Shown here piece after piece: positions 24,244-42,204 of a stretch of DNA of 64,000 bases (the stretch's first letter is position 1; each line of letters starts with the position of its first letter). The stretch is from Nitrospirota bacterium. GTDB taxonomy: Bacteria; Nitrospirota; Thermodesulfovibrionia; Thermodesulfovibrionales; JdFR-85. A program made the translations under genes and the position numbers. The notes beneath the pieces are model-generated. The model was not told the DNA's origin. It did no database searches and saw only the letters and a list, made by a program, of their open reading frames with translations. The stretch lies in NCBI GenBank assembly GCA_013152485.1, contig JAADGG010000025.1:50-64049 (forward strand), read 5' to 3'.

Positions 24244-24729
24244 CTAAATAAACAGCGTTATGTCCGCATCGAGTGCGAAGTTGAGGAACTCTGCAGCCCC
24301 CGCGACCTCGACTCCCTCGACGAGGTCGTCCTTGCTGACGCCGGTCATCTCGAGCGTGGGGGTGCAGGCTATCATCCTGACGCCTATGTCCCTGCAAGCA
24401 TCAACGAGCTCGGGTATGCTCGGCCAGTTTATCTTCTTTATCATCCCTTTCATCATGGTCGTGCCGATCGAGGTCATGCCCGGCAGCATGCCGAGTATGT
24501 TGGGGACAGGCACGGGTGAAGGCATCGCAGGGTTTGCTATGGGTGCCACCTGCAGCCTGCCGTTCTTCTTCCTGTTCACTATGTCGACGCCGTAGAGTGT
24601 GAAGAATATCGCGGTCTCCACGTCCATGGCAGCTGCGGTCGATGCGAGTATGAGGGGCGGATAGGCCATGTCCATCGTCCCTTTACTGGCGATTATCGCC
24701 ATCCTCTTCTTTTTTTTCTCTTCAGACAT
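24244..24729 (-). CDS. DsrE/DsrF-like family protein
   Basis: 161-aa ORF. Starts MAIIASKGTMDMAYPPLILASTAAAMD...FFTLYG and has a conserved Cys in MIACTPT. Matches the pattern of DsrE/F-like sulfur-relay-fold proteins. Confidence 0.65.
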   Translation of the reverse strand: MSEEKKKKRMAIIASKGTMDMAYPPLILASTAAAMDVETAIFFTLYGVDIVNRKKNGRLQVAPIANPAMPSPVPVPNILGMLPGMTSIGTTMMKGMIKKINWPSIPELVDACRDIGVRMIACTPTLEMTGVSKDDLVEGVEVAGAAEFLNFALDADITLFI

Positions 24730-36801: not shown

Positions 36802-37206
36802 TCACGGCTTCGGGGTTCGGGTGTGCGGGCCTGCGCTCTGGAGATGGCCCTCGACCTTCCTCTTCAGCTCGGAGATGTTCCCCTTGCATATGTACCCTGC
36901 AGCTCCGCATTCCGCGACAGATCTCCTGAGGCTGTCCTCGTCGTTCGATGAGTAGAAGACCACCGGCACCCTGCTCGTCCTCCTGTTTGCGCGTAACAGC
37001 AGAGAAAGCCTCTCCCCTGACAGGGCAGGCATGTTGATATCGAGGAGGACGAGGTCCGGCCGGGTATCGGCCACAGCAGTCGTGGCTCCGATCCAGTTGC
37101 GGTGCGTGATGACCTCGTGTCCGGCCTCCTCCAGCAAACCCTTTGTGATTATGAGATGCCTTTCGTCATCGTCTATGACGAGTATCTTCTTGGCGGTCCT
37201 CTTCAC
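36802..37206 (-). CDS. Single-domain response regulator (receiver only)
   Basis: 134-aa ORF with ILVIDDD, LVLLDINMP and a conserved K region. Its start is adjacent to the stop of the upstream kinase gene. Confidence 0.85.
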   Translation of the reverse strand: MKRTAKKILVIDDDERHLIITKGLLEEAGHEVITHRNWIGATTAVADTRPDLVLLDINMPALSGERLSLLLRANRRTSRVPVVFYSSNDEDSLRRSVAECGAAGYICKGNISELKRKVEGHLQSAGPHTRTPKP

Positions 37207-38373
37207 TCACGCGCCCTCGTGACCTTCAACGGGGAGGCGGATCTCTACGGTTGTGCCCTCTCCGGGCCTGCTCGATACGTCTATTCCTCCCCCGAGGAGG
37301 TTCAGCAGGCTCCTGGTTATGGTCAGCCCCAGCCCCGTGCCCTCGTATCTCCCGGTGCCGGCAAAGGCCTCGAATATCCTCTCCAGGTCCTCCTCGCGTA
37401 TGCCTGTGCCGGTATCGCTTACAGATATCCGGATCTCCCGTCCCTCGTTGCTCAGGGAGAGGAGGATCCGGCCCTGTTGTGTGAACTTCGCGGCATTGCC
37501 GGCGACGTTGGTGAGTATCTGCCGGACCTTGACCGGATCGGAGACGATGTACAAGGGTGCATCACATACGGACACGTCGACGCGGACGGGTTTGTTGCCC
37601 AAGAGTATGCGGGTGGTATCGGCGACCTCACGGATTACCGGAACCACGTCGAAGCGCTCGTTGAGGGCCTCCATCCTTCCCGCCTCTATTCTTGAGAGGT
37701 CGAGGACGTTCGTTACGATCGACCTCAGGTAGGTTGAGCTTGACATCAGCATGGCGAGATGCTCCTGCATGCGTTCCATCTGTCCCCTTTCGTACGAGAT
37801 CTTCATGAGCTCGGTCAGCCCGATTATGGCGTTTACGGGTGAACGGAGCTCATGGGTGACGTGTGCAATGAAACGGGACCTGATCCTGTTGACCTTCTCG
37901 AGGCTCCTTGCCCTCTCCTTTGCCAGCTCTCTCTGGATGATGCTGTTTACGAGGGCGTTGCCCTGCTGTATCACCATCTGCTTCACGGAGAGGAGGCCCC
38001 TGTAGTCTCCCTTGCCGTTTACGACTATGATATCGTCGTAGACGTTTTCAGGTGCCCTCTCCAGGGCCGTGTCCATGGCGATATCGAGCCTTTCGTCCTC
38101 GTTGATGACGAGCGGTTCGGGGTCGGCTATGGATATGACGGGCTTTTTTCCGTAGAGCTCGAACCCGTACCTCCTGAACAGCCTCAACAGCAGCTTCGAC
38201 CTCGTTGCAAGCCCTACAGGTTCCCTGCACTCGACCACTGCCACGGCGTCCATGCCTGCAGAGTTGAAGAAGATCTCGGCCACGCTGCTTACAGGGGCGT
38301 GCGGCGGTATGTGCTGCCTGGACGTCACCAGGCGTCCCACCGACAGAGAGTGGTCCTGCACCGATTCCCTCAT
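37207..38373 (-). CDS. Sensor histidine kinase with N-terminal CBS-pair-like domain
   Basis: 388-aa soluble protein. The N-terminal half resembles a CBS pair. HisKA has HVTHELRSPVN. HATPase has the N box (NVAGNAAKF), DTGTGI and GTGLGL. Confidence 0.8.
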   Translation of the reverse strand: MRESVQDHSLSVGRLVTSRQHIPPHAPVSSVAEIFFNSAGMDAVAVVECREPVGLATRSKLLLRLFRRYGFELYGKKPVISIADPEPLVINEDERLDIAMDTALERAPENVYDDIIVVNGKGDYRGLLSVKQMVIQQGNALVNSIIQRELAKERARSLEKVNRIRSRFIAHVTHELRSPVNAIIGLTELMKISYERGQMERMQEHLAMLMSSSTYLRSIVTNVLDLSRIEAGRMEALNERFDVVPVIREVADTTRILLGNKPVRVDVSVCDAPLYIVSDPVKVRQILTNVAGNAAKFTQQGRILLSLSNEGREIRISVSDTGTGIREEDLERIFEAFAGTGRYEGTGLGLTITRSLLNLLGGGIDVSSRPGEGTTVEIRLPVEGHEGA

Positions 38374-38389: not shown

Positions 38390-38563
38390 CTATGCCGCCG
38401 CCTCGATTGTCTCTTTGCAGTTCACGATGCAATCCACCATGTAGAGCCTGCAGGTCTCGTACTCGTAGCTGCCGCTGTAGCAGCAACCTCCATCCGCGCA
38501 CTCGAGGTGCTCGGGTTCGATCCCGGCAACCCTGCAAATACCGTTGTCAAACTTTGGACACAT
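38390..38563 (-). CDS. Small cysteine-rich protein (57 aa, 8 Cys), unannotated in the ORF track
   Basis: Hand translation: MCPKFDNGICRVAGIEPEHLECADGGCCYSGSYEYETCRLYMVDCIVNCKETIEAAA. Codon usage matches the genome (AGG Arg, C-ending codons). A G-rich SD-like stretch lies ~9 nt upstream. The stop is 16 nt before the kinase start. Confidence 0.5.
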   Translation of the reverse strand: MCPKFDNGICRVAGIEPEHLECADGGCCYSGSYEYETCRLYMVDCIVNCKETIEAAA

Positions 38564-38706
38564 GACTCTTTACCCCCGATCAAGTTTTCTTGGAAGTGAA
38601 CCCCTGGGCTCTCTTCCGGTTAGTTGCATCCGGCCGGCTCGTGTGCGTCTGCTTCATCACACCTGCCGTCCCCCTCGTCGTTGACAATCTGAATGATATC
38701 AAAACA

Positions 38707-38748
38707 ATGTTACGTGATCATGAAAACGGCATTAAGTTTTCAAGATTG
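38707..38748 (-). promoter_or_regulatory. 42-nt motif shared with the porin upstream region (candidate promoter/operator)
   Basis: atgttacgtgatcatgaaaacggcattaagttttcaagattg aligns without gaps to 40247-40288 (28/42 identical, including a 9-mer atgttacgt and ttttca). On the minus strand it contains TTGAAA. Confidence 0.35.
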
Positions 38749-38906
38749 ACGGCGCCGTTCCCCTTCCGCCTCCCGCATGTGAAAAAGCGGGGCGGGGGCC
38801 GGGCCCCCACCCTAAGGAGGATTGGAGATGATGAGTTTTCTCGCCGCTTCCGTTGCGCAGTCCCTCGAGTAATGCCCTTCCGTGATGGACGGCCCTGTCA
38901 GGGGCT

Positions 38907-40085: not shown

Positions 40086-40246
40086 GTCTGTCCTCCTTGG
40101 TCTGTGGGTTTCATTCTGCCCTTCGGGTTTCCCGGCCCGTGAACACGGGCCGTGTGTGTTGTCGAGATCTCAGGTCCTTCCCTGCATTGCTCACCTCCTC
40201 CCGTCTGCAGCCTGTCAGTTTTGACGTCAATCATCATACACCGGCG

Positions 40247-40288
40247 ATGTTACGTAGATATGACAGGAGTGTTAACTTTTCATGATCT
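40247..40288 (-). promoter_or_regulatory. Second copy of the 42-nt shared motif, upstream of the porin gene
   Basis: atgttacgtagatatgacaggagtgttaacttttcatgatct. On the minus strand this reads ATGAAA, 17 nt, TATCTA, followed by cgtaacat. Confidence 0.35.
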
Positions 40289-41642: not shown

Positions 41643-42065
41643 TCAGATGCCCTCCTCTTCCCGTTCGATCTTCTCGAGCTCTTCGCGTTTTCCCATGCAG
41701 TCGACACAGTATATCGCAAACGGGATGATCTTCAGCCTCTCTTCGCTTATCTCCGAACCGCAGTCTTCGCAGACCCCGTATGTGCCCTCGTTGAGCTTCC
41801 TCAGGGCCTCGTCTATCTTGTTCAGGGTCTGCTTGTGTACGGTGAGCTTCCTCAGGTTGAGGTCTTCGGCCAGATCCACGACCGACCAGTCTCCGTCATC
41901 GAGGGCGGTTTCGGCGAGCTGCTTGTTCTCTCCCCTGATGAACTTGCCTATCTCGCTCTTGGCCTCCCTTATTATTTCCTGCCTCTTGGCGATGAGCAGC
42001 TTTCTCAGGCGTTCCCTTCTCTGCTCTTCACTCTCCTGGGCCTTCTTAGCCTTTTTTCTCGGCAT
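41643..42065 (-). CDS. dksA: DksA/TraR-family C4 zinc-finger regulator
   Basis: 140-aa ORF with a coiled-coil region, then CEDCGSEISEERL....YCVDC. Confidence 0.85.
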   Translation of the reverse strand: MPRKKAKKAQESEEQRRERLRKLLIAKRQEIIREAKSEIGKFIRGENKQLAETALDDGDWSVVDLAEDLNLRKLTVHKQTLNKIDEALRKLNEGTYGVCEDCGSEISEERLKIIPFAIYCVDCMGKREELEKIEREEEGI

Positions 42066-42204
42066 CAGCCACCTCTTTTTTCTCTGCTCCGCCCTCCTTG
42101 TAGAGTTCCACTATACTCCGGACCTTTATGCCCGCCGCCTTGAGGGCTTTCTGTATGTCTGGCAGCTTTGCATCTTCGACTTTGACCATGAAATTTGCGT
42201 TCAT
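42046..42204 (-). CDS. Possible small protein (52 aa) between frr and dksA
   Basis: Hand translation: MNANFMVKVEDAKLPDIQKALKAAGIKVRSIVELYKEGGAEKKEVADAEKKG. GGAGG lies 4 nt upstream. ATA Ile codons match the genome. The 3' end overlaps the dksA start by 20 nt. No family recognised. Confidence 0.4.
   Translation of the reverse strand: MNANFMVKVEDAKLPDIQKALKAAGIKVRSIVELYKEGGAEKKEVADAEKKG

Follow-up and report, generated by a model that had tools for sequence, protein, structure and literature searches.

A cysteine-signature mini-protein family encoded beside a CBS-domain histidine kinase in Nitrospirota: a candidate labile modulator under a Pho-box-like promoter

Introduction

Small proteins that modulate sensor kinases are already a known kind, and for soluble histidine kinases hardly any accessory proteins have, to our knowledge, been described. 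In enterobacteria, the 47-amino-acid (aa) protein MgrB inhibits PhoQ in a pathway-induced feedback that is made redox-sensitive by conserved cysteines. Sda of Bacillus subtilis is short-lived through ClpXP, which acts on its C-terminal residues. This 46-aa protein inhibits KinA and KinB, a case of a small protein binding and modulating a soluble kinase (PMC10730256), and FixT of Caulobacter crescentus is an Fe-S-binding inhibitor of FixL-FixJ that is degraded by Lon (PMC7078487; bioRxiv 10.1101/2024.02.05.579008). Small proteins are routinely missed in genomes or left as "hypothetical". Here we describe a 57-aa protein with eight cysteines, hereafter the peptide, which is encoded just ahead of a soluble histidine kinase and a response regulator in a 64,000-nucleotide stretch of Nitrospirota DNA (contig JAADGG010000025.1, positions 50 to 64,049), hereafter the window. 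A sequence-only reading of the window, made without database searches, had singled out this open reading frame (ORF), and its claims are followed up below. We tentatively propose that the peptide is a phosphate-starvation-induced, short-lived, metal-binding mini-protein that may modulate the CBS-kinase pathway.

If so, it would resemble Sda as a ~50-residue cytoplasmic protein that acts on a soluble kinase by binding it directly (PMC10730256). The two share no sequence similarity: Sda is a cysteine-free helical hairpin, and its gene, which is controlled by DnaA, does not lie beside that of its kinase. With FixT the peptide would have in common the role of a two-component accessory protein, a cysteine-ligated cofactor, a level set by proteolysis and the provision of a second input to the kinase, all of which we infer for the peptide. 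FixT differs in being a ~120-aa receiver-domain protein with a four-cysteine motif and no homology to the peptide, and it belongs to an oxygen regulon whereas the peptide belongs to a candidate phosphate regulon. MgrB differs in that it is a membrane protein whose periplasmic action targets a transmembrane kinase; it has no homology to the peptide and displays another cysteine pattern. Genetic linkage or co-regulation with a specific kinase, by which we would place a small protein in the Sda/MgrB/FixT class, is found here in 12 loci and in locus L033, with a shared upstream promoter.

Results

The 57-codon ORF is a genuine gene ahead of a kinase/regulator pair

The core of the locus consists of three genes:

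38390..38563, minus strand: gene of the 57-aa cysteine-rich mini-protein (family A), recognised by its ORF and homologues
37207..38373, minus strand: soluble histidine kinase of 388 aa, with a CBS pair (~1-135), a coiled linker, HisKA and HATPase_c (Pfam and alignment)
36802..37206, minus strand: receiver-only response regulator of 134 aa, whose start abuts the kinase stop and which adjoins the kinase orthologue in other loci

The peptide ORF runs from an ATG at 38563-38561 to a TAG stop at 38392-38390. Its product is MCPKFDNGICRVAGIEPEHLECADGGCCYSGSYEYETCRLYMVDCIVNCKETIEAAA, with cysteines at positions 2, 10, 22, 27, 28, 38, 45 and 49, in exact agreement with the coordinates, cysteine number and spacing given by the sequence-only reading. 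A Shine-Dalgarno (SD)-like GGGGG run (38577-38573) ends 9 nucleotides (nt) from the ATG, and 16 nt separate the stop from the kinase ATG (38373), two features that had been noticed from the letters and are confirmed. The codon use, which had been called genome-typical, is so in a frame-specific manner: the G+C content at third codon positions (GC3) is 0.76 in the peptide frame, inside the 0.72-0.80 range of ten neighbour genes, whereas the two remaining frames give 0.46-0.49. The gene had also been described as unannotated, which does not hold everywhere: NCBI already lists the identical protein as hypothetical protein GXO94_02610 from a Nitrospirae metagenome-assembled genome (MAG).

Six peptide orthologues with 82-94% protein identity were aligned, from the window and from loci L001, L011, L013, L014 and L015 (L numbers designate the compared loci). 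They differ chiefly at synonymous sites, with pairwise ratios of nonsynonymous to synonymous divergence (dN/dS) of 0.03-0.18, dS being near or beyond saturation. The ATG and the SD are kept across loci, the SD being GGGGGTAAA in the window clade and AGGAGGTGA at the same place of the leader in distant loci. The peptide ORF is a genuine gene under purifying selection. A lack of conservation in syntenic loci had been set beforehand as a refuting outcome, and the ORF proved to be conserved.

The kinase had been predicted to be soluble with a CBS-pair input domain, and both points are borne out: its CBS match reaches 28.4 bits, in two stretches, against a Pfam cut-off of 24, HisKA and HATPase_c are matched too, and no transmembrane segment is found (maximum Kyte-Doolittle average over 19 residues, 1.23). 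In an alignment of 11 kinase orthologues the CBS pair is well conserved and the H, N and G boxes are intact. The window kinase is devoid of five ATP-lid residues, SQ[IL]ED (~345-350, between the F box and the G2 box), present in 10/10 orthologues. A homology search with the sensor domain gave six matches only; most are fragments, and they point to neither a name nor a wider distribution. In the closest relatives of the window the kinase is absent (L011) or reduced to its last 66 residues (L014), and truncated or frameshifted copies are present in L017 and L033; the pair may be decaying in parts of the lineage while the peptide stays. The predicted response regulator is present downstream of the kinase, and we can refine it to a receiver domain alone.

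Family A is a previously undescribed family with five conserved cysteines

A word-indexed protein search returned only two close relatives of the peptide. An exhaustive HMMER profile search of 1.84 billion representative proteins gave 38 matches, ~30 of them small proteins of 46-92 residues; the long matches in several stretches are unrelated repeat proteins. A profile search of a 5.8-billion set identified 46 members of what we call family A, all "hypothetical" and none with a Pfam domain, whose named sources are all Nitrospirae or Thermodesulfovibrionales. Among GTDB species genomes, scanned with an alignment of the 8 closer sequences, 12 family-A loci were found, 12/12 in Nitrospirota MAGs, and the source organisms are known only as MAGs. 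Family A comprises ~80 small proteins (83 unique members in the tail count below) and, judging from these searches, is confined to Thermodesulfovibrio-type Nitrospirota.

The family signature is M1 C2 P3...C10...G14 (I)E16 P17...C22...C28...[YW]-[ED]-x-C38-x-[VLI]-[YF], followed by a hydrophobic stretch and then a variable tail; in the window peptide the conserved residues are M1, C2, P3, C10, G14, E16, P17, C22, C28, C38 and Y41. Five of the eight cysteines are thus family-wide, C2 being invariant and C10, C22, C28 and C38 present in at least 90% of the members, with a spacing of C-x7-C-x11-C-x5-C-x7-9-C. C27, which completes the CC pair, is partially conserved, and C45 and C49 are restricted to the window clade and its nearest subfamily.

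Scans of the peptide, 33 family-A members and the sister families B, C and D (see below) against Pfam, NCBIfam, PADLOC and PHROGs gave nothing above threshold, and neither the peptide nor an A2-type member matched any NCBIfam family, SCIFF and other precursor models included. The only database family that scored at all was DUF7915 (PF25502), with peptide residues 11-53 aligned to model positions 60-102 out of 150 (E = 0.005). Membership was rejected (17.2 bits against a cut-off of 27, 43/150 positions, a match in only the 3 closest of 33 members), and the similarity is treated as a probable chance alignment of cysteine-rich segments. In sequence searches of the PDB, neither the single protein nor the profiles of families A, B and C had a match below E = 1. 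AlphaFold2 models of two representatives, built on alignments of 44-45 sequences, were of low confidence (predicted local distance difference test, pLDDT, 64 and 55) and contained no more than an N-terminal hairpin and one helix (~35-48); a Foldseek search of the PDB with the low-confidence peptide model gave no match. Literature searches found no description of family A, the papers on HMA_2/CoBaHMA being peripheral. The sequence-only reading, which did not recognise the family, was right in this respect, since Pfam, NCBIfam and the PDB hold no relative, and by these comparisons family A is previously undescribed and without detectable relative.

The five conserved cysteines make metal or Fe-S binding by the peptide plausible. 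Their arrangement includes no CxxC or CxC and lacks the two knuckles of zinc ribbons and rubredoxins, and zinc-ribbon Pfam models match neither the peptide nor the 33 family-A members. As for metallothioneins of the SmtA/BmtA type, there is no Pfam or NCBIfam match and no dense CxC/CxxC cluster among the five conserved cysteines.

The peptide gene is linked to the kinase pair across species

An orthologous CBS-kinase and receiver-only regulator lie at most 2 kb from a family-A member in 12 distinct loci from different Nitrospirota species (window, L001, L010, L013, L015, L017, L018, L019, L020, L022, L023 and L025). The distance from the peptide stop to the kinase start is below 50 nt in 7/12 loci, and a further small ORF lies between them in the other 5/12; in the seven loci a 15-22-nt coupling of the peptide to the kinase start is kept across species. 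A second family-A paralogue follows the regulator in L010, L018, L020, L022, L023 and L025. At L033, which was reached from the kinase, the order is promoter motif, peptide fragment, frameshifted kinase and regulator, and intact peptide. The claim that the peptide heads a kinase/regulator operon, for which homologues upstream of CBS-kinases had to be sought, is therefore supported by linkage in 12 loci and L033. In the window sequence no terminator, attenuator or copy of the promoter motif described below lies between peptide and kinase, and we conclude that the peptide is the first gene of a motif-driven operon.

Family-A members were also found in other surroundings: beside an MNT/HEPN pair and PhoH2, with no CBS-kinase nearby (L006), beside pstSCA (L016), beside a Zn-ribbon and an HMA_2 protein (L021), beside HMA_2 and pstSCAB-phoU (L027) and, for one subfamily, beside a PAS-kinase, a sigma-54 regulator and a STAS protein (L028).

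In several loci a ~55-aa cysteine-free protein (MKAMIEAKEGLYLISIYGKEGGLYDVYVVDEVELRAQKQDGG...), absent in the window, is encoded between the family-A gene and the kinase. Its gene was located as follows:

L023, 3854-4021: ~55-aa cysteine-free protein
L018, 4188-4385: the same
L020, 4188-4352: the same
L022, 2029-2211: the same
L016, 3567-3755: the same

The variable tail of family A ends like a degradation tag

The last 10-15 residues of family A vary in sequence and length, and 53 of the 83 unique members end in Ala (AA 28, VA 17, IA 4, LA 2). The window peptide ends in ...EAAA, that is, in Ala-Ala-Ala. When the conserved core was clustered at 70% identity, 35 clusters were obtained, 17 of which end in Ala and 15 (43%) in [AVIL]-Ala, compared with 11.6% and 3.9%, respectively, of 129 long ORFs from the same loci; by our own estimate the binomial probability is ~1e-12. 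Several exceptions without terminal Ala carry the motif just ahead of a shifted stop. The [AVIL]-Ala tail is retained in paralogues with no kinase downstream and so is not a by-product of the kinase ribosome-binding site.

The ssrA-like degrons of ClpXP are typified by a non-polar C-terminus that ends in Ala-Ala or Val-Ala. Hydrophobic C-terminal tripeptides, AVAA included, serve as ClpX degradation signals (PMC10782952). By analogy, the family-A tail may work as a putative degron: like the ssrA tag it presents a non-polar [AVIL]-Ala end, here after a variable and probably unstructured tail, but it is encoded by the gene whereas the ssrA tag (...LAA/...AVAA) is added by transfer-messenger RNA (tmRNA). 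No tmRNA gene is found in the 64-kb window for comparison.

A Pho-box-like promoter precedes the peptide, the porin and pst genes

Five features upstream of the peptide are of importance here:

38691..38743, minus strand: promoter/operator motif, TTGAAAACTTAATGCCGTTTTCATGATCACGTAACATTGTTTTGATATCATTC, which serves the peptide-kinase-regulator operon and is kept in the window clade as well as in distant loci
38564..38686, minus strand: inferred 5' leader of ~120 nt, including GGGGG, its start deduced from the -10
38790..38812, minus strand: intrinsic-terminator-like hairpin of 10 pairs (9 G-C) with a T-run, also in L001 and L013
38907..40085, minus strand: porin of the phosphate-selective porin O/P family (Pfam Porin_O_P, E = 1.5e-16)
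40231..40283, minus strand: second promoter/operator copy, ATGAAAAGTTAACACTCCTGTCATATCTACGTAACATCGCCGGTGTATGATGA, ~150 nt upstream of the porin start codon

A conserved block upstream of the peptide was seen in the window clade first and then in loci whose proteins are only ~50% identical. At the peptide it consists of the direct repeats TTAAT, TTCAT and GTAAC at 11-bp spacing followed by TGATATCAT, which reads as an extended -10 (hexamer 38698-38693) and would place the transcription start near 38686. A kinase transcript starting downstream of the peptide had been named as the second refuting outcome in the sequence-only reading; the conserved promoter lies upstream of the peptide, not between peptide and kinase. 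An Rfam scan of the leader region gave nothing meaningful. The porin is directly upstream of the peptide operon and syntenic in L001, L011, L013 and L014, and the terminator-like hairpin (38812-38790) would end its transcript ahead of the peptide promoter.

A position weight matrix (PWM) built from eight sites and scanned over non-redundant loci found 52 sites, 52/52 of which precede genes and have the same orientation as the gene. Once refined, the PWM finds exactly two sites in the 64-kb window, that of the peptide (38743-38691, 42.5 bits) and that of the porin (40283-40231, 43.0 bits), for which the first PWM gave 52.8 and 33.6 bits; nothing else in the window scores at least 12 bits, and the maximum over 20 simulated windows is -0.4. 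The motif is ~50 bp long (53 bp), with the consensus aAAAnTTAAc-N6-TTtAAT-N6-GTAACAt-N5-TGnTAnnnT, and combines three 11-bp-spaced direct repeats with an extended -10 and no -35 element at the right distance. Because of these repeats and of the extended -10 without a -35, the layout is that of a PhoB-type activator-dependent promoter. The motif occurs upstream of the following genes:

pstS: L016, L023, L027
psiE: L010, L018, L022, L023
PHP, glycosyltransferase and phosphodiesterase genes: L016, L023
porin: window, L001, L011, L013
Zn-ribbon/HMA_2 pair: L010, L021
STAS gene: L020
chemoreceptor (methyl-accepting chemotaxis protein) gene: L025
OmpR-family regulator-kinase pair: L027
genes of families A, B and C: many loci

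The PstS, PstB and PhoU proteins of these gene islands score above the NCBIfam equivalog cut-offs. The cyanobacterial Pho box bound by SphR, PyTTAAPyPy(T/A), is made of 8-bp repeats with 3-nt linkers (PMC4195498). Like the Pho boxes of PhoB and SphR, our motif has tandem 11-bp-spaced repeats in the -35 region, ahead of a -10, and precedes pstS. Its first repeat (e.g. TTTAACCT) fits the cyanobacterial consensus (PMC4195498), whereas its second and third repeats (TTnAT, GTAAC) deviate from it. From these comparisons we conclude that the island is one regulon, most probably that of phosphate starvation.

The only candidate for its regulator is encoded in L027:

L027, 108-803 and 800-2536: OmpR-family regulator and dCache/PAS kinase, PhoB/PhoR-like, with a motif copy ahead at 16-68

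The two proteins score just below the NCBIfam cut-offs for PhoB and PhoR (272 against 296 bits and 285 against 334 bits, respectively), and the pair is a candidate for the autoregulated master regulator of the motif regulon. For the Metallophos and glycosyltransferase pair of the islands, the label of PlcP-Agt lipid remodelling (PMC4796936) was considered and rejected, as NCBIfam identifies a YfcE-family phosphodiesterase and a sub-cut-off HpnI-like glycosyltransferase.

Sister families and other genes of the islands

At least three further small cysteine-rich families occupy fixed positions of the islands, among them those with the signatures ...CPxLKG...IRLCMxxRYExCSxY (family B), ...CPxC...YCxxEDYDxCPIFL (family C, in which a CPxC knuckle is present) and ...CKAxGVxVEYIxG... 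(family D). An island can carry up to 5-6 cysteine-rich genes, and every other small cysteine-rich gene of the island is preceded by its own copy of the promoter motif. In profile-profile comparisons with hhalign, A and B align weakly (probability 59%, E = 9e-5) and A and C very weakly (8.5%), so that a superfamily of A, B and C is suggestive only. Both alignments superpose four cysteines, C2, C10, C28 and C38, from which we infer a possible Cys4 centre, C22 being specific to family A. Further small cysteine-rich genes were located at:

L010, 5205-5830
L016, 4316-4796
L019, 4445-4663
L023, 4002-4229 and 6340-6798
L025, 5735-5938 and 8157-8417

An extra cysteine-rich type, CPFL...EYC...CPFY, is found in L014 (~2240-2425), outside Pfam and NCBIfam. 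A weak family-C-like match in the window (24381-24599) overlaps a longer gene in antisense and was set aside.

The mini-protein genes are followed by a conserved pair, one gene for a double zinc-ribbon protein of ~100 aa and one for an HMA_2 protein of 87-123 aa; HMA_2 (PF19991) is the domain named CoBaHMA in the literature. This pair often adjoins genes for DUF3562, CorA, MetK and a P-type ATPase whose own N-terminus is an HMA_2 domain. Its positions are:

L010, 5869-6454
L021, 1471-2147
L025, 8481-9151
L020, 7137-7807
L027, 6616-6987

Two other small ORFs of the window were recorded:

42046-42204, minus strand: 52-aa ORF (MNANFMVKVEDAKLPDIQKALKAAGIKVRSIVELYKEGGAEKKEVADAEKKG) flanked by frr and a zinc-finger gene of the DksA/TraR type (41643-42065), with a 52-aa gene called at the matching position of L001
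46965-47186, minus strand: 73-aa ORF from a scan for small cysteine-rich ORFs, unrelated to family A; its GC3 (0.84) is genome-typical, and close to the C-terminus it carries a CCC triplet (…DNECCCYYAGLRLV)

Discussion

In the mechanism that we tentatively propose, the peptide would be a cytoplasmic mini-protein folded around a cysteine-ligated metal centre, Zn or Fe/Fe-S, for which C2, C10, C28 and C38 are the likeliest ligands, while C22 could be a fifth, family-specific ligand or a reactive thiol. The peptide-kinase-regulator operon would be transcribed from an activator-dependent promoter with three 11-bp-spaced repeats, of a type that appears common to pstS, psiE, the phosphate porin and the other cysteine-rich genes of the island. 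As this promoter type is shared with pstS, psiE and the porin, the peptide would probably be made under phosphate limitation, on induction of a Pho-type regulon. Its ssrA-like [AVIL]-Ala tail would expose it to ClpXP-type proteases and keep it short-lived. It would bind a partner protein, kinase or regulator, as a labile modulator or connector of the CBS-kinase/receiver-only regulator pathway, and its metal or thiol state, together with its turnover, would bring in an input beyond the reach of a nucleotide-type CBS sensor. A wider version, in which the proteins of families A to D form an undescribed module of phosphate-starvation-induced, unstable metallo-mini-proteins serving as interchangeable co-sensors or connectors that couple metal/redox status to the CBS-kinase and its receiver-only regulator, seems to us quite unlikely.

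Several observations weigh against the modulator proposal. On the side of the kinase, the sensor domain contains, in the 11-orthologue alignment, no conserved Cys or His with which a metal site could be shared. On the side of the linkage, 7/19 distinct peptide loci have no kinase: in L011, where the peptide is 94% identical, porin, peptide and pgk follow one another with the kinase pair missing, and in L014 an intact peptide gene is followed by only the last 66 kinase residues. Since the peptide gene is intact in both and seven loci are kinase-free, the kinase is not its sole partner. The co-sensor role that the sequence-only reading had envisaged is, in an obligate form, likewise weakened by this survival of the peptide after pair loss and by the kinase-free paralogues of L006, L016, L021, L027 and L028. 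Moreover, most loci were ascertained via the peptide, so that the count of peptides beside a kinase is partly so by construction; of the two loci reached from the kinase, the peptide is present in L033 and missing from L031, a lone truncated CBS ORF. Roughly half of the family-A members end without Ala after de-replication. Because there is no CxxC knuckle and the AlphaFold2 pLDDT is low (64/55), the peptide fold and its ligand set are guesses. Finally, the Pho-box interpretation is based on resemblance and on the identity of the motif-bearing genes, and the motif can alternatively be read as a -35 TTAACA, a 17-nt spacer and a -10 TAACAT.

The main rival explanation is that the peptide is a stand-alone metal handler (a buffer, a metallochaperone or a thiol-based detoxifier) merely co-regulated with the kinase, the cysteine-rich arrays handling metal ions when phosphate is limiting, in concert with the Zn-ribbon, HMA_2, CorA and P-type ATPase proteins, and leaving the two-component pathway untouched. 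Such a protein could be retained after loss of the kinase pair, as in L011 and L014, and in kinase-free contexts, and it would suit islands with 5-6 cysteine-rich genes of three or four families, each under its own motif. The recurrence nearby of Zn-ribbon, HMA_2, DUF3562, CorA and an HMA_2-headed P-type ATPase points the same way, but these metal-transport neighbours are all missing from the window clade. A conserved degradation-type tail is also more in keeping with a regulator than with a protein for storage or buffering, five conserved cysteines with no CxC/CxxC cluster and no metallothionein or HMA match are not what a metal handler would lead one to expect, and the 15-22-nt coupling to the kinase start that seven loci keep across species speaks against the rival as well. 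We regard this explanation as rather unlikely.

The peptide could also be the precursor of a ribosomally synthesised and post-translationally modified peptide (RiPP), as the sequence-only reading had suggested, or a secreted signal sensed by the adjacent two-component system in the style of Gram-positive quorum sensing. A small gene just ahead of a kinase and its regulator, the several paralogues in one locus and the conserved N-terminal two-thirds followed by 10-15 variable C-terminal residues recall such systems. Here, however, the conserved part is the cysteine-rich part, the reverse of a leader/core layout, the protein starts with an invariant Met-Cys-Pro and has no signal peptide or double-glycine leader, and the kinase is cytoplasmic. 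Among the genes called in ~19 contexts there is no radical-SAM enzyme, YcaO, lanthionine synthetase (LanM), peptidase or dedicated exporter, and no SCIFF or other precursor model of NCBIfam matches, which makes this explanation most improbable and leaves the RiPP suggestion unsupported. We give hardly any credence to a translated leader, in which translation of a functionless product, perhaps sensitive to Cys-tRNA, would control kinase expression: a cysteine-rich product (8/57 residues) and a 16-nt gap permitting translational coupling would suit it, but non-Cys residues (AGIEPE, P3, Y41) and the C-terminal tail are under strong purifying selection, members with no kinase behind them have the same conserved sequence, and no terminator or attenuator structure separates peptide and kinase.

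Compared with the systems described so far, the combination of a cysteine signature, a built-in tail that may be ssrA-like in function and paralogous arrays appears to be new, as do the placement of family A under a Pho-box-like promoter and the motif itself, which could be used as a candidate Pho box for Thermodesulfovibrionia. The sequence-only reading had noticed neither the Pho-box-like regulon nor the ssrA-like tail nor the sister families. The locus offers a testable case: a 57-aa cysteine-signature protein with a probable degradation tag, a candidate kinase/regulator partner and a promoter motif linked to pstSCAB-phoU, psiE and the porin. If the proposed mechanism holds, this would be the first regulon-level promoter motif for Thermodesulfovibrionia and would aid the annotation of MAGs. 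Even if the peptide turned out to handle metals and nothing else, the connection of phosphate starvation with cysteine-rich mini-protein arrays would still be new. If families A to D did form a module, it would represent a new class of small-protein two-component inputs and a direct link between phosphate and metal homeostasis. And if the proposed mechanism is true, an anaerobic, largely uncultured lineage would use the peptide to integrate phosphate with metal or redox status.

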